From an uncultured Muribaculaceae bacterium (lineage in GTDB: Bacteria; Pseudomonadota; Alphaproteobacteria; Rs-D84), in contig CAZPLT010000001.1 in NCBI GenBank assembly GCA_964587855.1, forward strand, positions 83,523 to 147,522: DNA of 64,000 bases, read 5' to 3'. Numbering within the stretch: the first letter of the stretch is position 1; every line of letters starts with the position of its first letter. The position numbers and the translations under genes were made by a program. This document shows, piece after piece, positions 13,694-62,835 of the stretch. The notes beneath the pieces were generated by a model. It saw only the letters and a program-made list of their open reading frames with translations. It was not told where the DNA came from and did no database searches.

Positions 13694-13879
13694 TTATTTC
13701 TTTACGGCCCAAAATAAAGCAAAAACCCAGCCAATCCCAGTCCAGCCCAACAGCCAACTGGCACTGCGTACAATGCCATGGTCCAATTTATCTTTTTTTG
13801 TTTGGCTGACGAACCATGCAGGCGCCATCATTATCGCGAATATTAGTAAAACAGCCAAGATGTATTTTATTGTAATCAA
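13694..13879 (-). CDS. Small 2-TM membrane protein, superinfection-immunity (Imm)-like motif
   Basis: [26 protein letters not shown] resembles the Imm_superinfect signature (H-x-N...LLGWTxIGWxxALxWA). Confidence 0.45.
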
Positions 13880-15123
13880 ATTTTATTAGAATATTTTGCT
13901 TTGTTACCTAATTCTTCTTCTATACGCATAAGCTGATTATATTTTGCCATTCTGTCGGTGCGCGACATACTGCCTGTTTTAATTTGTCCGGCATTTGTTG
14001 CAACCGCCAAATCCGCAATAGTCGTATCTTCGGTTTCGCCACTGCGATGAGAAATTATAACACCATAACCAGCATCTTGGGCAATTTTAATAGTATCCAT
14101 GGTTTCAGTAATAGTTCCGATTTGATTTGGCTTTATTAAAATAGCATTTGCAATTTTGTTATCAATTCCACGTTTTAATCGAACAGGATTTGTTACGAAC
14201 AAGTCATCACCAACCAGTTGAACTTTTTTGCCAATGCTCTTGGTCATTTCTTTCCATCCATTCCAATCATCTTCGGCCAATCCATCTTCTATGGAAATAA
14301 TTGGATAATCCAAAACTAGTTTTTTATAAAATTCTATCATTTGGTTTGATGATAATTTTTTATTTTCAAATTTATAAATTCCATTTTTATAAAATTCAGA
14401 TGCAGCGACATCCAGACCCAAAGCAACATCTTTGCCAGGGTTATATCCAGCGGCTTTTATCGCCTGGGTGATTAAATCAAGTGCATCGCGAGTGTTTTTT
14501 ATGTTTGGTGCAAAGCCACCCTCATCTCCAACATTTGTTGAATAGCCTGATTTCTTTAGAATAGCTTTTAGATTATGAAAAACTTCACTGCCTATTTTAA
14601 TTGATTTAGTTTCGTTTTTTACGATTGGAATAATCATAAATTCTTGGACATCTAAACCATTATCAGCATGTGCGCCACCATTGATTACATTCATCATTGG
14701 GCGAGGTAACAAAGTTCCAGTACCTAAATACTTATAAAATGATTTTCCAGATTGTTTTGCTGCGGCATGTGCCGCCGCCATAGATACTGCCAAGATAGCG
14801 TTCGCCCCTAATTTTGATTTATTAGGGGTTCCATCAATTTCAATCATCTTTTTATCTATTACGGATTGTTTGCTGGCATCCATTTTCAAAAGAGCAGGAG
14901 CTATGATTTTATTTACATTTTTTACCGCTTTTAAAACACCTTTGCCCATATAGTCCAAGCCGCCGTCGCGTAATTCCAATGCTTCGTGAGTTCCAGTTGA
15001 AGCCCCAGATGGCACACTGGCACGACCAATTATCCCGCTGCTTAAAAAAACGTCACATTCAATGGTGGGATTCCCGCGGCTGTCCATAATTTGTCTGGCA
15101 TGAATATTTTTTATTTTGAACAT
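13876..15123 (-). CDS. eno: Enolase
   Basis: [25 protein letters not shown]..., full-length, unmistakable. Confidence 0.95.
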
Positions 15124-15143: not shown

Positions 15144-15872
15144 TTACATTTTAAAATTTTCACCCAAATAAACACGTCGTACCATTGGATCTTTGATAAT
15201 TTTATCGGTTGTTCCATGAATCAATATTTTCCCATCATGTAAAACATAAGATCTGTCTGTAACGCCCAAAGTTTCACGAACATTATGATCGGTAATAATA
15301 ACGCCCAAACCACGATTTTTTAATTGGGACACCAATGTGCGGATTTCATTTACAGCTATTGGATCAATCCCAGCAAATGGTTCGTCCAATAAAATAAATT
15401 TAGGATCATTTGCCAACGCACGGGCAATTTCAACACGTCTGCGTTCGCCACCAGATAAAGAAGTAGAAGGCGAAGTTCTTAAATGTTCAATTGAAAATTC
15501 ATGTAATAATTCATTTAATTTTTTTTCACGTTTTTCAGGATCTGTTTGTATAACTTCCAATATCGCCATAATATTTTGTTCTACGGATAAACCATGAAAA
15601 ACACTGTTTTCCTGGGGCAGATATCCAATATGTAAACGTGCACGTTGAAAGAAAGGCAAGTGAGTAATGTTTTGACTGTTTAAAAAAATTTGTCCGCTGG
15701 TGGATTGTATCTGTCCCGTGATGCAATAAAACGCCGTTGTTTTTCCAGCACCATTTGGACCCAGTAATCCGACGGATTCTCCCTGGCGGACGTCAATAGA
15801 AATATCCTTTAAAACTGTGCGTTTTCCATAGTTTTTGGAAAGATGTTCAATTTTTAAAATACTTTGTTTCAT
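15144..15872 (-). CDS. lptB: LPS export ABC transporter ATP-binding protein
   Basis: Walker A GPNGAGKTT, ABC signature LSGGERRR. Sits downstream of an OstA-like gene. Confidence 0.9.
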   Translation of the reverse strand: MKQSILKIEHLSKNYGKRTVLKDISIDVRQGESVGLLGPNGAGKTTAFYCITGQIQSTSGQIFLNSQNITHLPFFQRARLHIGYLPQENSVFHGLSVEQNIMAILEVIQTDPEKREKKLNELLHEFSIEHLRTSPSTSLSGGERRRVEIARALANDPKFILLDEPFAGIDPIAVNEIRTLVSQLKNRGLGVIITDHNVRETLGVTDRSYVLHDGKILIHGTTDKIIKDPMVRRVYLGENFKM

Positions 15873-16348
15873 AATTTTATCACCAATTCTTCTGTAATTA
15901 TTTGGTCCCCATTACTAGAATTAACACGAACGTTACCGGACAATGTTACGTCTTTTTTTAGTTTATCATATTTTCCAGTTTTTGCGCGAATATTATCTGT
16001 GATATTTTGCCCATTTGATACCCTGGTAATTTTTGCACGAATATTATCCAAAAAAACAAAGTTTGGAATGTCGTATTCTTGTCTGGCAATATCTGCATGC
16101 ATTGTAAATGGGTGTCCATCTTTATCTATTCCAGAAAATGAGGGATTTGTCATTTTAAATTGATTTTGCATTACGTCTGATAAATTAATTCCTGAAATAG
16201 GCATCCATCGTAAATTTTTAGAAATCATAGAGCCAGCAATCAGGGCGCCAATCAGAACCAGTCCCCAGCCAGTAAATATAAATTGCCACAAGCGCTGACC
16301 GCGCCGATAATTACTGGAAATAAGAAAATTTCTGTTTGACCATTCCAT
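15869..16348 (-). CDS. lptC: LptC/LptA (OstA)-family LPS transport protein with N-terminal membrane anchor
   Basis: Single N-terminal TM followed by OstA-like beta-jellyroll repeats (DNIRAKTGKYDKLKKDVTLSGNVRV). Upstream of lptB. Start chosen at MEWSNRNF. Confidence 0.6.
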   Translation of the reverse strand: MEWSNRNFLISSNYRRGQRLWQFIFTGWGLVLIGALIAGSMISKNLRWMPISGINLSDVMQNQFKMTNPSFSGIDKDGHPFTMHADIARQEYDIPNFVFLDNIRAKITRVSNGQNITDNIRAKTGKYDKLKKDVTLSGNVRVNSSNGDQIITEELVIKL

Positions 16349-16418
16349 TTCAATAATCCTATTGCAAAAGAGTTTGATTTGCAACATGTTTTCTGTTAGA
16401 ATAAGCTCAAGAGAGAAT

Positions 16419-21449: not shown

Positions 21450-21501
21450 GTAACTATCAAATCGGGTGCAGTTCTGCACCAAATTCTCAAGAGGTAAAAT
21501 C

Positions 21502-22770
21502 ATGCACGTTAATGAATTAAAGGCAAAGTCGCCCCAGCAATTATTAAAAATGGCCGAAGAAATGGGGATTGAAAATCCATCACAATTGAACGTCCAGCAA
21601 CTTCGTTTTGCGGTTTTGCGTGTTATTTCTATGGATAAAAAAACAACATTGGTTGGCGATGGTGTTTTAGAACGTATGCAGGATGGATTCGGTTTTTTGC
21701 GCGCGCCGGAATCAAATTATTTGGCTGGACCAGATGATTTGTATGTTTCTCCTAATTTAATTAAGAAATATGGATTAAAAACTGGTGACTATGTCGAGGG
21801 TAAAATAGATGCCCCACAAAACGAATCCGAACGTTATTTTGCATTGGAAACAATTGAAAAAGTAAATGGCGAAGCACCAGAAAAATTGAAACATCGTGTT
21901 TCTTTTGATGATATGACACCATTATATCCAGATAAAATGTTAAAAATGGAAACAGAAAACGATAAGGACAAGGGTCGTTCACTTTCTGCGCGTGTTATTG
22001 ACTTGATTTCCCCAACGGGCAAGGGACAACGTTCTTTGATTGTTGCGCCTCCACGCACTGGTAAAACGGTTATGCTGCAAAATATAGCAAACAGTATTTC
22101 AACAAACTATCCGGATGTCAGCTTGATTGTTCTTTTGATTGATGAAAGACCAGAAGAAGTTACAGATATGAAACGCAGCGTTAAGGGAGAGGTTATTTCC
22201 AGTACTTTTGATGAGCCAGCCGCGCGCCATATTCAGGTTGCAGAAATGGTTATTGAAAAAGCAAAAAGATTGGTAGAAGGCGGCAAAGATGTCGTTATCT
22301 TGTTGGATTCAATCACCAGACTTGGTCGCGCTTATAATACGGTTGTGCCATCCAGTGGTAAGGTTTTAACTGGTGGTGTTGATGCGTATGCTTTGCAACG
22401 TCCAAAAAGATTCTTTGGTGCGGCCCGAAATATAGAAGAGGGCGGCAGTCTGACAATTATTGCGACGGCATTGGTTGATACCGGCAGTAAAATGGACGAA
22501 GTTATTTTTGAAGAGTTCAAAGGAACCGGTAACAGCGAAATTATTTTGGATCGCAAATTATCCGATAAACGTGTTTATCCTGCAATTGATATTACTCGTA
22601 GCGGTACGCGCAAGGAAGATTTGTTGGTTGAAAAAGATATCCTATCCAAAATGTATGTTTTACGCAGAATTATCAATCCAATGGGAACTTTGGAAGCAAT
22701 GGAATTTTTATTAGATAAATTACGCACTACAAAAACTAATGCGGATTTTTTCGGTGCAATGAATACATAA
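21502..22770 (+). CDS. rho: Transcription termination factor Rho
   Basis: N-terminal insertion/OB domains, Walker A PPRTGKT, full-length hexameric helicase core. Confidence 0.95.
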
Positions 22771-22833: not shown

Positions 22834-23064
22834 ATGAAAAAAACAATAATTATTTGGGGATTGGCGGGGGTAATAACAATTTCGGCGTATTTTTTTGGAA
22901 AAACACTCGGGAATAAAGAGTGCCAAATAGAAACCGCCAAACAAATAAATATAAAACAAGATGAAATTATAAAAATAAGGGAGAAAATAAATGCGGAAAC
23001 TTTTAATACTGGGGTGTCTGATATTCGTCAGCGGTTGCGCGAAAAATGGACCATCCACAATTAA
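22834..23064 (+). CDS. Small secreted/membrane-anchored protein (76 aa), unknown
   Basis: N-terminal hydrophobic segment. Overlaps the next ORF in another frame. Confidence 0.35.
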   Translation: MKKTIIIWGLAGVITISAYFFGKTLGNKECQIETAKQINIKQDEIIKIREKINAETFNTGVSDIRQRLREKWTIHN

Positions 23065-23176
23065 CACAATTAAAATATGTGAACCAATTTATGGGCGTGA
23101 TTCAGATTGGAATGTAATCAGTGATGATTTTGCGCGAAATATTTATCGGCATAACAGATTATGCCAAGAGCAATAG
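22991..23176 (+). CDS. Small lipoprotein (61 aa), unknown
   Basis: Strong RBS agggag. Lipobox LILGCLIFVSGC. Overlaps the preceding ORF by 74 bp. Confidence 0.4.
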   Translation: MRKLLILGCLIFVSGCAKNGPSTINTIKICEPIYGRDSDWNVISDDFARNIYRHNRLCQEQ

Positions 23177-23178
23177 TA

Positions 23179-24240
23179 TTATTCTGATGCGGCTTCTGCC
23201 TGGGATATAACTGCTTCACCAGCAGTTTTTAAATTAGTTAAATATGTTTTATAACTGGTGCAATCCCTGGAAATTTCGGATTTATAAGAATCGCGCAGGT
23301 TTGAAACCATATAAAAACACCCTTTCAAATGTTGAACACAGTAATTATGGCCGATCAAGAATGCGTTTTGTCCACGCAGGCTATCATCGGTTTCATCCGG
23401 CCAGTCTATATCCAGCGCATCGTTTAAAGATGCCATATCATTTGTGCCAGTATGTTCATAGAAAGTATCCTGCCATAGGTCTTCTAGTTCGGCATCTGTA
23501 ATACTGGTACTGGATGAACCGCCATTTTTTATAACAATTATTTGTTGTAAAATATTTTCTACTTCGGGACGCAGGGTATTGTCTATGTTAGCTAACTCAT
23601 CACTGCAAAAACAACGATTATAAGCAGCGTTTTTTCGTTCACAATATCCATCCATACAAGATCTGTAATCAGCCAAACATTGTGATGTGCTTACCGAAGT
23701 ATCAGAAACAGTGGTTATTGTTGTGTCAGAAGAGCGAGTTGAAGTATCCCCGCGTGAAGATCGTGCAGATACGGTTCTGTTTTGGATTCCCCTGGCAGAT
23801 GAAGAATGTGTTGTGGCGCTTTTTGCGGTTGAACCGCTTCGCGCAACCACTCTCTTGGTGCCCGATGAAGAATATGTTGAACCGCTTCGCGCGACTACCC
23901 TTCTGGTGCCAGATGAAGTAGAAGAATTGGTCCTGGATGTGGTACCGCTGCGTGCTAATTTTGCCCCAGACGTATTGCCAGAACCCGTGGCCGCACGCGC
24001 AAAAGCAGAAGATGTGTCAGGTGTATATTCAGTATTGCTGGAATATAAAGAAGTCTGCATTTTTTCATTCATAAATGGTCGCATTGTATTATAAGTTGCA
24101 GGATTTATGTAATTTGATGCGGTTGCTGATTCGGCATTATTAAAACAAGTAAAAGAAAGTGTAAACAAAATGGCAAAAGTCATCATGCGTGCAAAAAAAG
24201 CATGTTTATAGTTTGCTATTTTGTTTCTTTCAGGGCTCAT
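23179..24240 (-). CDS. Secreted Ser/Thr-rich tandem-repeat protein with Cys-rich C-terminal domain
   Basis: Signal peptide. TRRVVARSGST... ~19-aa repeats (57-bp DNA tandem repeat ~23825-23940). 9 Cys in C-terminal 150 aa. Immediately downstream of a GT-like gene. Confidence 0.55.
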   Translation of the reverse strand: MSPERNKIANYKHAFFARMMTFAILFTLSFTCFNNAESATASNYINPATYNTMRPFMNEKMQTSLYSSNTEYTPDTSSAFARAATGSGNTSGAKLARSGTTSRTNSSTSSGTRRVVARSGSTYSSSGTKRVVARSGSTAKSATTHSSSARGIQNRTVSARSSRGDTSTRSSDTTITTVSDTSVSTSQCLADYRSCMDGYCERKNAAYNRCFCSDELANIDNTLRPEVENILQQIIVIKNGGSSSTSITDAELEDLWQDTFYEHTGTNDMASLNDALDIDWPDETDDSLRGQNAFLIGHNYCVQHLKGCFYMVSNLRDSYKSEISRDCTSYKTYLTNLKTAGEAVISQAEAASE

Positions 24241-24242
24241 TT

Positions 24243-25061
24243 TTATTTTCCAATCCAATATTTTCTGATCCATTTGGTCGGACGAACGTGTCGTAAACCA
24301 AATTTTGCGGTATATCCGTTCATGGCTTCTTCATTAATTGGTCTTCCGTGGAAAATAACAACTTTTGCACCAACTGGTAATTTAGGTGTAATAAACCAAT
24401 TAAATGGGAATTTTAAAAGACAGCAATATTTGAATGATCGTACCCAAGATTTACACATTGGGCATTCTTCGCCGTTCCAAAAGCTGAAAATGCCTTTTTT
24501 ATGCATTTCACGGGACATATAAGCCTGCTCGTGACGCACTTCGTGACGAATTTGTTCAAAATTTTTCTCGAAATAATCCAAAATATCTTGATGTTTACCA
24601 ATTTCAAATCTAAATACGGATGAATTTCCAACAGAATTATCGTTTGCTCTGTCCCTAGAGATAATAAATTTACCAGGTTGACGGAATAAATCATCAATAT
24701 TATCTATGATTACAACGTCCAAGTCCAAGAAAAGACCAATTCCTTTTAAATTTCCCAGTTTTTCAGATAATAATCCCAGTTTTTTCCATCCACGTTCAGG
24801 CAGTCCATTACGTAATTTTACAGGTGGTAATGAAAATGTTTCGATACCCTTGTCTAAGCCTTTGGGATCTTCGGTAAAACAAACAAACCGATGGGGCAGG
24901 GTCAGGTTTTTTTCAACCATACGATACAGGCGATTTACATATTCTTTGCTGAATTTTTCACTGCCATCTTCGCGTCGCCACCACATACAAACTACATTTA
25001 ATTCTTGTTTATTGGCGGATTTTACGGGTTTAACGGTTTTTTTTGTCGTTATTTTTGGCAT
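24243..25061 (-). CDS. Putative GT-A-type glycosyltransferase (DxD-like LDLDVVIID motif)
   Basis: 272 aa, no TM. Acidic motif FLDLDVVIIDNIDDLF typical of nucleotide-sugar transferases. Identity not established. Confidence 0.35.
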   Translation of the reverse strand: MPKITTKKTVKPVKSANKQELNVVCMWWRREDGSEKFSKEYVNRLYRMVEKNLTLPHRFVCFTEDPKGLDKGIETFSLPPVKLRNGLPERGWKKLGLLSEKLGNLKGIGLFLDLDVVIIDNIDDLFRQPGKFIISRDRANDNSVGNSSVFRFEIGKHQDILDYFEKNFEQIRHEVRHEQAYMSREMHKKGIFSFWNGEECPMCKSWVRSFKYCCLLKFPFNWFITPKLPVGAKVVIFHGRPINEEAMNGYTAKFGLRHVRPTKWIRKYWIGK

Positions 25062-25237
25062 TTATCGTCCTTCCTTTGATTTAGATTATAGAACATTATA
25101 TTTATTTATTGCAATCAAGAATTTTTATTATAACATTATTAATGTTATGAAAAATCGTTCGATTTTTTTATCTGTTTTCTTTCACCACGCCTGCGCGGGC
25201 GTGAATTTATAGCTATTTATACTCAGAACAAACAATA

Positions 25238-25296: not shown

Positions 25297-26589
25297 ATGG
25301 ATCTTAAACCAACAAAACCTTTATCTGGATTTATAGAATTGCTGCCGGTTCAACAGCGGTGCTTTGATGAATGCGCCAATAGAATGCAGCAAGTCTTGAA
25401 AACCGCCGGATTTGCACGGTTAGACTTGCCGGCCATAGAACGTGCCGAGGTTTTAACCGATAAAGATAATTGGGACGAAATTGAAACTCAAATGTTTATG
25501 TTTCAAAAGGGCGATACAAAAATGGGGCTGCGGTATGATGGTACTGTCGGGCTGGCTCGTTATGTATCTGGTCACCTGAATGATTTGGTTTTTCCTTTTC
25601 GTGCGTATCAATTTGCCAGAAATTATCGTGGTGAACGTCCGCAAAAAGGGCGTTATCGCGAATTTTATCAAATGGATTTAGATGTTTTGGGTATAAACGA
25701 GCTGTCATTAAATTATGATGCTGAAATTGTTGCTGTTTTGGCACGAGCCTATGAATCTTGTCGTGAATTTATTGGTGGGACTAATATTCGTGTTGGTTCA
25801 CGCCCATTTTGGAATGCTTTTTTTGAATTATTGGGTTTGTCCAAAGAACAATCCAGGGCAGCGTTTGTTTTAATAGATAAAAAAGACAAATTGGATGATT
25901 TTCAGGGCGCTTTGGCAGAAGAAATCGGGGATAAATCAATTGAAATTATAAAAGTATTTTCAGACGGTTATCAATCATTCTTGAAAAAGAGTGTAAAGTT
26001 AGATTCTGCTATTTCTGAAATGGATAAATTCATGAAACAATTGGCAATAATGGGTATAAAAAATGCCAAAATTGATTTGGGAATTATGCGTGGTCATGCA
26101 TATTATACCGGTTTAGTGTTCGAGTTCTTTTTGGATGATTTTCCGTCTTTGGGCGCTATCGGTGGTGGTGGCAGATACGAAGATTTAGCCGGAAAATTCA
26201 GTAAAACCAAGATAATCGGTGTTGGTGCAGCAGTTGGTTTTTCTAGAATAATGATCGCTTTATTAGAAGATAATAAAATAAAACTGAATAAATTTGAATC
26301 TCCAGTAATGGTTTCTGTTTTGGTGATGGGTGAAAATACCGTTCCGTTCGCAATGTCTGTTCTGTCTGAACTGCGTGGGGCTAATATCGTCTCGATTCCG
26401 TATCTGGACGCCGATAAAAAGTTCAAAAATCAAATAGAGTTTGCTGATAAAATAAAAAGCAAATTCAGTATAATAGTAGGAGAAGATGAAGTTAAATCTA
26501 ATACTGTTACAGTCAAAGATATGGTTACTGGTAAACAGCAAAATTTACCATTATCTGATGCAATTAATATGTTAAAGAAAGTAAAATGA
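25297..26589 (+). CDS. hisS: Histidyl-tRNA synthetase (class II)
   Basis: Motif 3-like AIGGGGRYEDL. C-terminal anticodon-binding alpha/beta domain. ~430 aa. Somewhat divergent N-terminus. Confidence 0.7.
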   Translation: MDLKPTKPLSGFIELLPVQQRCFDECANRMQQVLKTAGFARLDLPAIERAEVLTDKDNWDEIETQMFMFQKGDTKMGLRYDGTVGLARYVSGHLNDLVFPFRAYQFARNYRGERPQKGRYREFYQMDLDVLGINELSLNYDAEIVAVLARAYESCREFIGGTNIRVGSRPFWNAFFELLGLSKEQSRAAFVLIDKKDKLDDFQGALAEEIGDKSIEIIKVFSDGYQSFLKKSVKLDSAISEMDKFMKQLAIMGIKNAKIDLGIMRGHAYYTGLVFEFFLDDFPSLGAIGGGGRYEDLAGKFSKTKIIGVGAAVGFSRIMIALLEDNKIKLNKFESPVMVSVLVMGENTVPFAMSVLSELRGANIVSIPYLDADKKFKNQIEFADKIKSKFSIIVGEDEVKSNTVTVKDMVTGKQQNLPLSDAINMLKKVK

Positions 26590-27668: not shown

Positions 27669-28475
27669 TTACTTACATAATATGTTTTTCATTTCTTCTA
27701 CAGGGAAACGTTCCTGGACCCAGCTGTCAGTATCGTACCCTTTCCAACCATTAGCTGATCCACCACTTGGGTTTTTTACCATAGTATTAACTATATTTCT
27801 ATTTGTATCCCGTATCTTTGTATTATAAAACATTATTTCATCTATGATTCTGGAAAGATATTCATCAATTCTGAAACTTTCAGGTTGTTTGTTGCCTTGG
27901 CAAAATTCTTGATAGGTAAGGCATTTGCTGCCTGTATTTATTCTGTATGGATCGTCAAACCCACGTGTAGCATATGCAAATCCCAGCGCAAAACACCAAT
28001 AAGAATAGTTAAGAAAATCACAAGTTATATCCAGTCTTGTATTTGATGGAGCCTTTTTAGCTGCGCTAATTTCCCCGCTAAGGGTTGAGTCATGATCAAA
28101 AAATGCAACATATTTATTATATTTATTTGTGCAATCTTCTTTATTTCCAACAACCGAATCTTTGAGAAAGCTTATATATTCTGTTTTGGTTTGAATAGGT
28201 TGGTCCAAAGTATCGTATTTTTTTGAATAATAACTTGTAGATGATGAATCTGAATCGTTAATACGTGGGGACGATCCCCTGGTGCTAGAAGAAGACGTAG
28301 TTGGATTTGTTCGTGGCATGACCAGCGAACGGACAAATGTAGGCATGTCTGAGTAAAGATCTGAATATGCCGAAGAAAGCAATGATTCTTCAGGTGTTCG
28401 AGAATTTTGCCTTTGTGAAGAAAAAGCTACAATCGGAATAAATAGTAAAGCAGTTAAAGTATAAAGTTTTCGCAA
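27669..28475 (-). CDS. Secreted Ser-rich protein, unknown
   Basis: Signal peptide, S/T-rich low-complexity region, Cys-containing C-terminal domain. Confidence 0.5.
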   Translation of the reverse strand: MRKLYTLTALLFIPIVAFSSQRQNSRTPEESLLSSAYSDLYSDMPTFVRSLVMPRTNPTTSSSSTRGSSPRINDSDSSSTSYYSKKYDTLDQPIQTKTEYISFLKDSVVGNKEDCTNKYNKYVAFFDHDSTLSGEISAAKKAPSNTRLDITCDFLNYSYWCFALGFAYATRGFDDPYRINTGSKCLTYQEFCQGNKQPESFRIDEYLSRIIDEIMFYNTKIRDTNRNIVNTMVKNPSGGSANGWKGYDTDSWVQERFPVEEMKNILCK

Positions 28476-28546: not shown

Positions 28547-28622
28547 TGGTGATCCCAGCAGGAATCGAACCTGCATCTAATTCTTAGGAGGAACTTGTTC
28601 TATCCAATTGAACTATGGGATC
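28547..28622 (-). tRNA. tRNA-Arg (anticodon CCT)
   Basis: Reverse complement GATCCCATAGTTCAATTGGATAGAACAAGTTCCTCCTAAGAATTAGATGCAGGTTCGATTCCTGCTGGGATCACCA folds as a cloverleaf. Anticodon loop CTCCTAA. Confidence 0.85.
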
Positions 28623-43789: not shown

Positions 43790-43863
43790 TGGTGCGGGCG
43801 GCGGGAATCGAACCCGCGTCTCGAGCTTGGAAGGCTTGCATTCTACCATTGGACTACGCCCGC
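43790..43863 (-). tRNA. tRNA-Gly (anticodon TCC)
   Basis: Reverse complement GCGGGCGTAGTCCAATGGTAGAATGCAAGCCTTCCAAGCTCGAGACGCGGGTTCGATTCCCGCCGCCCGCACCA. Anticodon loop CTTCCAA. Confidence 0.85.
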
Positions 43864-43876
43864 GATGCAAATTTTT

Positions 43877-43962
43877 TGGTGGGAGCGGTTGGAGTCGAAC
43901 CAACTCAAGCAAAGCTAACAGATTTACAGTCTGCCCCGGCTCTCCGACTCCGGCGCGCGCCC
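43877..43962 (-). tRNA. tRNA-Tyr (anticodon GTA), long variable arm
   Basis: Reverse complement GGGCGCGCGCCGGAGTCGGAGAGCCGGGGCAGACTGTAAATCTGTTAGCTTTGCTTGAGTTGGTTCGACTCCAACCGCTCCCACCA. Anticodon loop CTGTAAA. T-arm GTTGG-TTCGACT-CCAAC. C at position 8 and a C4.U69 acceptor mismatch are noted. Confidence 0.7.
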
Positions 43963-44017
43963 TAAAAATAAAAATAAAAAGACGAAAAAACGCTGTTGCG
44001 CTCTTTCGTCCAGATTT

Positions 44018-44093
44018 TGGCAGCCCCAACCGGAGTCGAACCGGTGTTCTCGCCTTGAAAGGGCGGTGTCCTGGGCCTCTAGACGATGGGGCC
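44018..44093 (-). tRNA. tRNA-Glu (anticodon TTC)
   Basis: Reverse complement GGCCCCATCGTCTAGAGGCCCAGGACACCGCCCTTTCAAGGCGAGAACACCGGTTCGACTCCGGTTGGGGCTGCCA. Very close to canonical bacterial tRNA-Glu. Confidence 0.85.
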
Positions 44094-44100
44094 AAAAATA

Positions 44101-44177
44101 TGGCGGGATTGACGGGGATCGAACCCGCGACCTTCTGCGTGACAGGCAGACGCTCTAACCAGCTGAGCTACAACCCC
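44101..44177 (-). tRNA. tRNA-Asp (anticodon GTC)
   Basis: Reverse complement GGGGTTGTAGCTCAGCTGGTTAGAGCGTCTGCCTGTCACGCAGAAGGTCGCGGGTTCGATCCCCGTCAATCCCGCCA. Confidence 0.9.
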
Positions 44178-52282: not shown

Positions 52283-52312
52283 TAATCCCCCTTGTTTGCG
52301 GGGGAAATAAAT

Positions 52313-52936
52313 ATGAAAAAAACTGTTCTTATTATTGATGATGATGACTTGTTGCGTGGCAGTTTAGCCAAAGGTCTTAAATCCGAGTCTTTTGCCGTAA
52401 TAACCGCTGAATCTGCGGAAACAGCCACAGAAATATTAAAAAGAATATCTGTTGATGCAATCGTTTTGGATAGAATGATGGTTGGTGTTGATGGGTTAAC
52501 TTTCTTAAAAGGTTTACGTGCATCTGATAATCAAACACCTGTTATAATGCTGACGGCGTTATCTGGACCGGAAAATGCAATTGTTGGACTTTCTGGTGGT
52601 GCAGATGATTATTTGGCAAAGCCTTTTCAGTTAAAAGAGCTTGTTTTACGCCTTAAAAACATAATGCGTCAGTCAGAAAGTAAATTATCTAGGGAAAGAA
52701 ACGCTTTGCCAAGGGGACTTGCATTTTCGGATAATGAGTTCTATATTAATGATAAGTTGTTGGGATTATCAATAGCCGAGAAAGAATTGTTAAAAAATTT
52801 GACTTTTCCGGTAGGAAATATTGTGCCTGCAACCCCTATGGTCGCGAAACGTATGCGCGAAAAATTATTAAGTGTGTTAGATGGTGTTGAAATGGTCACT
52901 GTACGTGGCAAAGGATATAAATTGGTGATAAAGTGA
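52313..52936 (+). CDS. OmpR-family response regulator
   Basis: Receiver domain (DDDD...D...K pattern) and winged-helix C-terminus. Confidence 0.85.
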   Translation: MKKTVLIIDDDDLLRGSLAKGLKSESFAVITAESAETATEILKRISVDAIVLDRMMVGVDGLTFLKGLRASDNQTPVIMLTALSGPENAIVGLSGGADDYLAKPFQLKELVLRLKNIMRQSESKLSRERNALPRGLAFSDNEFYINDKLLGLSIAEKELLKNLTFPVGNIVPATPMVAKRMREKLLSVLDGVEMVTVRGKGYKLVIK

Positions 52937-54210
52937 AATTATTTCCAAAATCATTTTTATGGAGAACGGTTCTGATGATAATGGTGCCATTGATAGTGGC
53001 TCAAATCATCATGGCAAACGTGTTCTTTGGTAATCACTGGCAACGTGTTCATGCATCTATGGCACGGTCTTTGTCTGGTGAAATTACAACTATGTTAAAT
53101 CTGTGGGACAGCGGAAACATCAAAGCAGTTTCTACTATGGCGCATGATACAGGAATAAATGTTTCTGTGAATGAACATTTAAATCGGCCACGGGAAAACG
53201 ATAATAAATCCCGTGAAGCTGGGCAATTGGCGCAAGATTTAAAATTTAAAGTTAAAAACCCAGTAAATATATATATTGATCGCGCTAATCGTTTGCTTTA
53301 TGTCGATGTGCCACGCGATGATAAAATAATGACTTTTGCGACATCTCTTCGTCGTGTTTATTCCACCAGTACCGAAGTATTTATAATTTGGTTAATCGGT
53401 TCGGTTTTAATAGTTGGAATTTTAATAGCCCCATTTATAATTATGCATACACGTTCTATTCATAAAATTGCACGTGCAGCAAACAAATTTGGTCGTGGAT
53501 TGGATGATCCTAATTTTAAACCAATGGGCAGTCGTGAAATCCGCGAGGCCAGTCGAGCACTTATTTTAATGAAAGAACGTTTGAATCGTTATAATCGTAC
53601 CAGAACGGATATGTTAAATGCGGTCAGCCATGATTTAAAGGCCCCACTGGCACGTATGCGATTGGCGGTTGAAACCGAGAGCTCGGATAAAAATGTTTTA
53701 CTGCGCGATATTGATCGTATGTCTGAAATGGTTAATGGATATTTGGCGTTTGCGCGTGGTGAAATTCCAGAAATAGAGCAAGATATTTCTTTGCCACCAA
53801 TGTTGACACGTATTGCTCGTGATGCGATTGGGAAAAAGAAATTGGAAACTGATTTTCCATCCCCTGCTGCTAATTTTTATGCCAGACCAACTGCCTTGGC
53901 CAGTGCATTCCAAAATATAATTGAAAACGCTGCCAGACATGCCAAAAAGAAAGTTTTAATTACCGAGCATGACGGTATAGAATCTGTAGAAATAACCATA
54001 GATGATGATGGTCTGGGAATTCCAGAGGATAAACGTGCAGATGCTTTACGCCCATTCGTCAGATTGGATGCAGCACGTGGCAAAGATACCGGTGGAACCG
54101 GATTGGGATTATCTATCGCACAAACAGCTATTGAAAATCATGGTGGGCAATTATTACTGGAAGATTCACCACTGGGTGGATTACGTGTCCGCGTGATATT
54201 GCCGATATAA
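52933..54210 (+). CDS. Sensor histidine kinase (EnvZ-like: 2 TM, HAMP, HisKA, HATPase)
   Basis: H-box SHDLKAPLARM, N/G boxes (GGTGLGLSIAQ). 4-bp overlap with the regulator gene. Confidence 0.85.
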   Translation: MKLFPKSFLWRTVLMIMVPLIVAQIIMANVFFGNHWQRVHASMARSLSGEITTMLNLWDSGNIKAVSTMAHDTGINVSVNEHLNRPRENDNKSREAGQLAQDLKFKVKNPVNIYIDRANRLLYVDVPRDDKIMTFATSLRRVYSTSTEVFIIWLIGSVLIVGILIAPFIIMHTRSIHKIARAANKFGRGLDDPNFKPMGSREIREASRALILMKERLNRYNRTRTDMLNAVSHDLKAPLARMRLAVETESSDKNVLLRDIDRMSEMVNGYLAFARGEIPEIEQDISLPPMLTRIARDAIGKKKLETDFPSPAANFYARPTALASAFQNIIENAARHAKKKVLITEHDGIESVEITIDDDGLGIPEDKRADALRPFVRLDAARGKDTGGTGLGLSIAQTAIENHGGQLLLEDSPLGGLRVRVILPI

Positions 54211-54211
54211 A

Positions 54212-54988
54212 ATGAAAAAATTACCAAAAATTTCTGTAATAATCCCAATGCGCGATACTGAAAAATATATCGGAGAGTGTCTTGATTCTGTGATGTCTCA
54301 AACTTATCCAAATTTGGAAATAATCGTTGTTGATGACGGCAGTACAGATAACAGTGTTTTAATTGCTAAATCATATAAAGTAAAAGTTATTCAGCAAAAA
54401 AAGATGGGTGTTTCTGTTGCCAGAAATACAGGAATTGATACGGCAACTGGTGAATATTTACATTTTATTGATGCAGATGATAAACTTTTAAATAAAGATT
54501 TTTATGAAAATGTGATGGCTGGTATTGGTAACACAGATATTGCGATAGTTGGAGTTGTTGATGAAAAATATGGTGATAAACCAGTTGAAAATTTTAAAAG
54601 TGTTAAAATTTATCACAGCAAGCAATCAAAGATAAACATCAGCAAAGTTGCACGCCGTCCAGCAGTTTGGCGATTTATATTTCGCCGCGATTTTTTAATA
54701 AAAAATAAGTTGCGATTTGAACCTGGGCGAGTTACCAGTCAAGATGTTATGTTTACTATTCCTGCCGTATTTTATGCAAATTCAATAGCTACAATCCCAA
54801 ATACTTTTTATTGGTACAGACGCGCGCCACTGGGCGCAATGCGTGACCCTGCCCGCGCTTTTGCACGCGAACAAAACAAAAAGATAGTATGGGATCGTGC
54901 AGTTAAATTTGCAGTTAAAAATAAATTTTTTTTGGGATTTCGCCGCAGCTTTTTCAAATGGTTGAAAATACTCTTTATTAGAAAATAA
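54212..54988 (+). CDS. Family 2 glycosyltransferase
   Basis: ISVIIPMRDTEKYIGECLDSVMSQTYPNLEIIVVDDGSTDNS is a GT2 N-terminal signature. DAD motif. Confidence 0.8.
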   Translation: MKKLPKISVIIPMRDTEKYIGECLDSVMSQTYPNLEIIVVDDGSTDNSVLIAKSYKVKVIQQKKMGVSVARNTGIDTATGEYLHFIDADDKLLNKDFYENVMAGIGNTDIAIVGVVDEKYGDKPVENFKSVKIYHSKQSKINISKVARRPAVWRFIFRRDFLIKNKLRFEPGRVTSQDVMFTIPAVFYANSIATIPNTFYWYRRAPLGAMRDPARAFAREQNKKIVWDRAVKFAVKNKFFLGFRRSFFKWLKILFIRK

Positions 54989-62761: not shown

Positions 62762-62835
62762 GCGGGCGTAGTCCAATGGTAGAATGTAAGCTTCCCAAGC
62801 TTGAGACGAGGGTTCGATTCCCTTCGCCCGCACCA
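62762..62835 (+). tRNA. tRNA-Gly (anticodon CCC)
   Basis: GCGGGCGTAGTCCAATGGTAGAATGTAAGCTTCCCAAGCTTGAGACGAGGGTTCGATTCCCTTCGCCCGCACCA. Near-identical in architecture to enterobacterial glyU. Confidence 0.9.

Follow-up and report, generated by a model that had tools for sequence, protein, structure and literature searches.

Glycosylation in the bacterial cytoplasm ahead of export is known from the HMW1C-HMW1 pair, from TibC-TibA and Aah-AIDA-I, and from the pathways of serine-rich repeat proteins (SRRP), in which GT8-type enzymes take part by extending the SRRP glycans. A first-pass annotation proposed a dedicated protein O-glycosylation or adhesin-glycosylation system of this kind for a locus in a 64,000-nucleotide stretch of DNA from an uncultured alphaproteobacterium (contig CAZPLT010000001.1, positions 83,523 to 147,522; hereafter the window), where the gene for a 272-aa glycosyltransferase (GT) lies directly upstream of a gene for a Ser/Thr-rich secreted protein (here called sec). 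The observation is confirmed in part and its interpretation supported in part: the enzyme half holds, and the system-level claim does not, the two genes being linked in a single clade, the Ser/Thr richness not being conserved and the context elsewhere being that of the lipopolysaccharide (LPS) core. What is new is a glycosyltransferase family of a known enzyme kind, so far without a Pfam or NCBIfam model, beside an uncharacterised family of envelope proteins. We consider it somewhat probable that GT is an enzyme of the LPS or lipooligosaccharide (LOS) core type, or of another envelope glycan, which is co-transcribed with the envelope protein sec in this clade only.

The locus resembles the described adhesin systems (HMW1C/N-glycosyltransferase (NGT) with HMW1; TibC/Aah, the bacterial autotransporter heptosyltransferases (BAHT), with TibA/AIDA-I; SRRP with GtfA/B, Gly enzymes and SecA2/Y2) in that the gene for a soluble cytoplasmic glycosyltransferase stands beside one for a secreted protein with a repetitive Ser/Thr-rich region. 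It differs from them in several respects: GT is not a GT41 enzyme, a GT9-like BAHT or a GT4 GtfA/B; the substrate-like region of sec is short (~115 aa) and basic, with two 16-aa repeats and Ser/Thr that are not conserved; the linkage is found in one clade only; and the flanking genes include no recognisable accessory Sec component or autotransporter/two-partner secretion (TPS) partner. The coordinates and the spacing of ~2 bp first given for the two genes are correct, and the locus comprises the following features.

24243..25061, minus strand: GT gene, predicted 272-aa cytoplasmic GT-A-fold (GT8-like) glycosyltransferase (open reading frame, model, Foldseek and invariant columns)
23179..24240, minus strand: sec gene, putative 353-aa exported protein (from the ATG at 24240)
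25085..25114, minus strand: sigma-70-like promoter candidate, TTGCAA-18-TATAAT, 5' of the GT gene (consensus match)
23828..23918, minus strand: two 48-nt (16-aa) repeat units, SSGT(R/K)RVVARSGST, within sec (seed extension)

GT and sec appear in the list of open reading frames (ORFs) of the window as two co-directional minus-strand genes. The stop codon of GT (TAA, 24245-24243) is followed 2 nt on by the in-frame ATG at 24240 from which the 353-aa sec begins (MSPERNK...); the longest sec ORF starts at 24273, encodes 364 aa and shares 31 nt with the GT gene. A ribosome-binding sequence, AAGGAAGGA, lies between the promoter candidate and the ATG of GT; the promoter candidate is a consensus match only, in a region where such sites are as numerous as expected from shuffling. 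With a 2-nt spacer, one upstream promoter-like site and no terminator-like hairpin found between the two genes, GT and sec are likely co-transcribed in this genome.

The glycosyltransferase and its family

The 272-aa protein is predicted to be a cytoplasmic, DxD-type glycosyltransferase of the GT-A fold, as had been proposed. Its AlphaFold2 model, built from a 44-sequence alignment, has a predicted local distance difference test score (pLDDT) of 91.5 and a predicted template modelling score (pTM) of 0.87, and comparison of the model with PDB by Foldseek gave 263 matches at E <= 0.001, all 50 of those listed being GT-A enzymes (GT8, GT6, LARGE1, GT24). The top matches are glycogenin-1 and -2, LgtC, LARGE1, UGGT and the GT6/ABO transferases, with E about 1e-8 to 1e-6 and template modelling (TM) scores of 0.48-0.56 by query and 0.12-0.60 by target; the best of them are all retaining GT-A enzymes, GT8 being topmost. 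The acidic motif noticed originally, FLDLDVVIIDNIDD, is present: D113 and D115 (encoded at 24717-24725) are invariant together with L110 and L112 in the 44 homologs, as are G145-N146-S147 and H238-G239-P241, and with them the LDLD, GNSS and FHGxP motifs. Going by these structural neighbours, GT would use a UDP-hexose donor and Mn2+; its DxD motif makes metal dependence probable, and a retaining mechanism as in GT8 is probable too. GT, in which neither a signal peptide nor a hydrophobic segment was found, is predicted to be a soluble or peripheral cytoplasmic enzyme. The GT of the window carries a Lys-rich N-terminal tail of 20 aa that is absent from most homologs, and the GTs of its clade have private insertions, of ~5 aa after W28 and of a Cys-containing segment near residue 200.

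With the GT8 enzymes (glycogenin; LgtC; WaaO/WaaR/WaaJ-type) GT shares a GT-A Rossmann-like fold, a DxD in the corresponding position with an N-S-G/S motif after it, and a His late in the sequence (FHGxP in GT versus HxxGxxKPW in GT8); members of its family also often adjoin genes for bona fide GT8 and other LPS-core enzymes. It differs from them in its shorter length (core ~240 aa), in a sequence identity of ~16% at TM ~0.5-0.6, and in a profile similarity that is marginal (E = 0.048), in which LDLD/GNSS of the family profile align to FLDAD/NSG of glycogenin-2. GT does not match the Pfam model of GT8 (PF01501) even at E <= 1, and thus lies outside GT8 as strictly defined by sequence model; GT, sec and a second Ser-rich protein of the window have no Pfam or NCBIfam match of any kind. 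As a single sequence searched against those of PDB, GT gave weak matches alone (E = 0.34-1.2). PHROG 1962, a 'glycosyltransferase' of the phage 'moron/auxiliary metabolic gene (AMG)' class, matches it at 4e-11.

The family is large. More than 2,488 proteins are homologous to GT and at least 351 to sec (best 8,000 candidates scored), and these hundreds to thousands of homologs indicate that both are genuine genes. In species-representative genomes at least 592 GT loci are confirmed. The hosts among the matches listed are gut Alphaproteobacteria, Gastranaerophilales/Melainabacteria, Campylobacterota (Sulfurovum, Nitratifractor), Lentisphaerota/Victivallaceae and Gammaproteobacteria (Methyloprofundus, Thioglobus, Granulosicoccus), all of them diderm lineages. 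The 53 immediate downstream neighbours tallied outside the window's clade include the 3-deoxy-D-manno-octulosonate (Kdo) transferase WaaA (8), Glycos_transf_1 (9; this count may overlap that of WaaA, as the one WaaA neighbour checked individually matches Glycos_transf_1 too), GT8 (6), GT9 heptosyltransferase (4), GT2 (2), a GT92-like protein (1), an MsbA-like ABC exporter (2) and a Wzx-like flippase (2), and the gap to the downstream gene is often -28 to +14 nt. A glycan or LPS-core gene lies within three ORFs of GT in 27 of 71 loci, directly adjacent in 22; within these loci, which span four phyla, WaaA occurs in nine, GT9 in six and an MsbA-like gene in five. A GT25 gene is found upstream of GT in two loci. 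Linkage of the family to LPS-core genes is therefore recurrent in unrelated lineages, though not universal, and LPS/LOS core and surface-glycan synthesis is the only context, among those recognised, that recurs in more than one phylum.

In one locus of an uncultured bacterium (L171 7001-13034, carrying homolog P0020) the gene order is GT, LicD, GT8, GT8, Stealth and a sulfatase/phosphoethanolamine-transferase-like gene. This cluster resembles a locus for a phosphocholine- or phosphosugar-decorated LOS outer core. The gene contexts of two other homologs, P0112 and P0097, gave nothing informative.

The putative exported protein and its linkage to the glycosyltransferase

Much of the earlier description of sec is borne out, namely a signal-like N-terminus, a Ser/Thr/Arg-rich central stretch and a Cys-rich C-terminus; the comparison with mucins is not, since the linker contains 1% Pro and 11% Arg. 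In the family alignment the N-terminus is hydrophobic, signal-peptide-like and ends in small residues, and a YNxMxPxMNxxM motif is conserved. The linker of the window's protein (residues 67-182) is 27% Ser and 20% Thr, with an isoelectric point (pI) of 11.8, and residues 70-179 are disordered in the AlphaFold2 model (pLDDT below 50). The acidic C-terminal part (171 residues, pI 4.4) has eight Cys, invariant across the family, that probably pair in four disulfides; it is modelled as an all-helical domain, with pLDDT of 85-94 in its best blocks. We infer from these features that sec is a Sec-exported periplasmic or envelope protein. The named homologs are all from uncultured Alphaproteobacteria save one mis-binned record, and among the matches listed none has a Pfam domain; the sec profile matched no PDB sequence, and Foldseek against viral structures returned nothing, with no structural match to a phage or lysis protein.

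The tandem repeat in the linker has a shorter period than the ~19 aa and ~57 bp first reported at ~23825-23940. There are two copies, 23828-23870 and 23876-23918, 86% identical and spaced by 48 nt, and the encoded motif begins at residue 111 and again at residue 127, a period of 16 aa; Tandem Repeats Finder (score 30) reported no repeat in 23179-24273. The variation in copy number between strains that had been suggested as a check is not seen in P0122, a 94%-identical variant with the same number of copies. Linkers throughout the family keep RRVVxR(S), usually in two copies, with spacers that vary freely in length and composition, so that the two repeats are this genome's versions of two ancient family-wide RRVVxR motifs, with no private recent expansion. 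Across the family the linker Ser+Thr fraction ranges from 0.14 to 0.45, Arg is ~0.07-0.14 and acidic residues are rare; in GT-linked orthologs Ser+Thr is 0.45 (window), 0.23 (P0132) and 0.18 (P0134). Given this range, and the low values in the other GT-linked orthologs, Ser/Thr richness is a matter of species-level composition, and the conserved property of the linker, as far as the alignment tells, is that of a basic disordered tether with RRVVxR motifs. RRVVxR(S) is a conserved short linear motif.

The linkage of the two genes was assessed from both sides, with reference to the following flanking features.

21466..22770, plus strand: rho, the syntenic anchor of sec (Pfam Rho domains on orthologs)
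22834..23064, plus strand: 76-aa protein with an N-terminal transmembrane helix, i-spanin-like (PHROG 1026); overlaps the next gene at its 3' end
22991..23176, plus strand: 61-aa lipoprotein-like gene with lipobox FVSGC, o-spanin-like (homologs, PHROG 1275)
25297..26589, plus strand: hisS-like gene, transcribed away from GT; bounds the syntenic block on this side
27669..28475, minus strand: 268-aa second signal-peptide protein with a Ser-rich stretch and six Cys

From the GT side, a search for sec within ~6 kb of GT in the best 80 of the at least 592 loci found an adjoining sec homolog in six (L008, L009, L010, L011, L012 and L013). The six coincide with the loci whose GT identity is at least 65%; there is none among the 74 at 57% or less, other Alphaproteobacteria included. 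From the sec side, 80 metagenomic loci were considered, of which 64 have at least 900 nt upstream and 56 at least 2 kb downstream: GT is upstream of sec in 5 of the 64, which are the five closest relatives, and downstream of sec lie rho in 51 of the 56 and the gene for the 76-aa transmembrane protein in 42. In the genome of P0150, for instance, sec adjoins rho, and upstream of it, in place of GT, lies a radical-SAM gene in divergent orientation. Where GT and sec adjoin, hisS always flanks GT, and the GT/sec gaps in the clade are -31 to -1 nt by longest ORF. The adjacency occurs only within a single clade, all of whose members have the full hisS-GT-sec-spanin-rho synteny, and so reflects a single evolutionary event, in which GT arrived upstream of sec once, in the window's clade. 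As the association of rho with sec is kept and GT upstream is rare, the ancestral position of sec is that of a stand-alone gene beside rho. That the abutment has been retained hints, though weakly, that co-expressing the two genes is tolerated or of use.

Several of the loci with this alphaproteobacterial synteny of hisS, rho and sec (L009, L010, L013, L016 and L034) belong to records labelled 'uncultured Muribaculaceae bacterium', which are probably mis-binned or mislabelled metagenome-assembled genomes (MAGs).

Candidate acceptors of the glycosyltransferase

According to the explanation that we favour, GT would work on the cytoplasmic side of the inner membrane, where it would transfer a hexose from a nucleotide-sugar donor onto an envelope glycan anchored to a lipid; the LPS/LOS core is the best candidate for this glycan. 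In this alphaproteobacterial clade alone the GT gene would have come to sit directly upstream of the older, positionally conserved sec, and the adjacency would be a lineage-specific feature of gene order, perhaps with a shared role in the envelope, and no dedicated enzyme-substrate module. The organism probably makes LPS, as the window contains LptC-like and LptB-like ABC genes (15144-16387, minus strand) that adjoin enolase (13876-15123). Several observations weigh on the other side. About 60% of the GT loci outside the clade have no recognised glycan gene nearby, so the assignment to LPS depends on a recurrent minority context; unrelated neighbours of GT occur, among them a class II aminoacyl-tRNA synthetase and a GGDEF-HD protein; no homolog of waaA, GT9 heptosyltransferase or GT8 was found within the 64-kb window; and a literature search returned nothing specific on a characterised member of the family. 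Within the clade, the stop-start abutment of GT and sec is kept even though sec identity drops to 40%, which is compatible with functional coupling, and the private insertions of the clade's GTs could signal a changed acceptor.

Those last two points also speak for the O-glycosylation first proposed, in which the cytoplasmic GT would glycosylate Ser/Thr residues of the sec linker before Sec export. The two genes are 2 nt apart or overlapping in all members of the clade, the linker in the window is 47% Ser+Thr, and cytoplasmic glycosylation ahead of export has precedent. That GT lies outside the known protein-glycosylating families does not in itself exclude protein acceptors, as the GT8-type enzymes of the SRRP pathways illustrate. 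Neither a non-GT-A fold nor a complete lack of linkage in other genomes, the two outcomes named in advance as fatal to this proposal, was strictly found, and with a GT-A fold and a linkage that is not 'never' seen it survives as a minority possibility. We nevertheless regard it as improbable, and three of the four defining features of such a module were tested and all three found lacking: the linkage is limited to one synteny-sharing clade instead of recurring in independent lineages; the Ser/Thr-rich acceptor is not conserved even in GT-linked orthologs and contains just two 16-aa repeats, what is conserved being Arg and RRVVxR; and no Pfam or NCBIfam match relates GT to the GT41 NGTs, BAHT, GT4 GtfA/B or a periplasmic O-oligosaccharyltransferase (O-OTase). 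In addition, many GT-family members come from phyla whose loci, among the best 80, have no sec-family gene within ~6 kb of GT, over 90% of sec loci have it as a monocistronic gene next to rho, and the Ser-rich protein at 27669-28475 is unrelated to sec and linked to no GT. A fuller version, in which a GT8-like sub-lineage with private insertions was moved from a surface-glycan cluster to a place in translational abutment ahead of sec and re-purposed to O-glycosylate the sec linker in the cytoplasm before export, seems to us a shade less probable again. Were this version true, serine-rich-repeat or HMW1C-type adhesin glycosylation would have a Gram-negative counterpart built on a GT-A enzyme, and O-glycosylation of sec in either form, if true, would add a new kind of protein glycosylation system to those of Gram-negative bacteria. 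Serine-rich repeat (SRR) adhesins are reported to be glycosylated intracellularly (PMC7948813).

The main other rival to an LPS/LOS-core role, which we consider rather unlikely though less so than O-glycosylation of sec, is an acceptor that is neither LPS nor sec: a glycolipid of the membrane, a primer for capsule or exopolysaccharide, a cytoplasmic small molecule or storage glucan, or DNA as for some phage glycosyltransferases. The many GT loci without an LPS gene nearby would fit it, as would the match to PHROG 1962 and a weak one to a phage glycosyltransferase, the Wzx-like flippase and Stealth neighbours at some loci, and the presence of glycogenin among the closest structures; it has to contend with a recognised context that recurs in more than one phylum for LPS-core genes only (WaaA, GT9, MsbA-like, GT8, GT25), with a family confined to diderm lineages among the matches listed, and with phage records that number just two, both matching weakly. 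On account of those two weak matches only, a phage origin of GT was rejected as the principal explanation. One further reading would make GT an unrelated insertion, with sec and the convergent spanin-like pair forming an envelope-spanning or lysis-related module, for example of the gene transfer agent (GTA) type, beside rho. The conserved block formed by sec, the 61-aa lipoprotein, the 76-aa transmembrane protein and rho suggested it, together with the matches of both small proteins to Rz-like spanin PHROGs; but sec is transcribed convergently to the pair and hence shares no operon with it, sec has no structural match among phage or lysis proteins, and neither the window nor the orthologous loci contain a holin, endolysin or other phage gene among the named neighbours, so that we hold this reading to be very improbable.

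Other features of the window and significance

The spanin-like pair may be the more interesting feature of the neighbourhood. The 76-aa protein matches PHROG 1026 ('Rz-like spanin') at 2.8e-5 and the 61-aa lipoprotein PHROG 1275 ('Rz-like spanin') at 2.6e-8; the latter is 53-68% identical in distant sec loci and up to 100% identical in close relatives, and its gene is convergent with sec, the two ends lying 2 nt apart. As in the phage spanins Rz/Rz1, the gene for the transmembrane protein overlaps that for the lipoprotein in another frame. Unlike phage spanins, the pair is chromosomal, is kept beside rho across many gut Alphaproteobacteria and has no holin, endolysin or other phage gene near it. 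Judged by these homologs it is apparently a deeply conserved, domesticated pair; a literature search found nothing specific on chromosomal spanins beside rho.

The second Ser/Thr-rich secreted protein, at 27669-28475, had been likened to sec in its layout. Its ORF, its signal-like N-terminus and a Ser-rich stretch of ~35 residues are real, as are its six Cys, but it has no sequence similarity to sec: paralogy was rejected (BLASTP E = 0.68), and the likeness goes no further than the general layout. Searches of Pfam, NCBIfam and PHROG gave no match for this protein, whose gene lies downstream of prfA and is conserved in the closest relatives only.

The description of the host as a reduced intracellular alphaproteobacterium finds no support. 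The closest records are MAGs of uncultured Alphaproteobacteria, with distant relatives from termite, ruminant and human gut metagenomes, and the window encodes OmpA/Pal-like, MscL, two-component, LysM and Lpt proteins. Elsewhere in the window, genes for a response regulator, a histidine kinase and a GT2 glycosyltransferase follow one another on the plus strand (52292-54988) with ends overlapping or abutting, and may form an operon joining a two-component system to a glycan gene. Three tRNA genes lie within 400 nt on the minus strand (43793-44177), with single tRNA genes at 28550-28622 and 62762-62832.

The exported protein defines a conserved envelope protein family of gut Alphaproteobacteria, marked by an RRVVxR linker and an eight-Cys helical domain. 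GT represents a large and widespread GT8-like family that lacks a Pfam or NCBIfam model and whose context points to LPS/LOS core synthesis in diderm bacteria of the gut and the environment. Recognition of this family should accordingly be useful for genome annotation and for the study of how LPS varies among uncultured gut Alphaproteobacteria and Melainabacteria.

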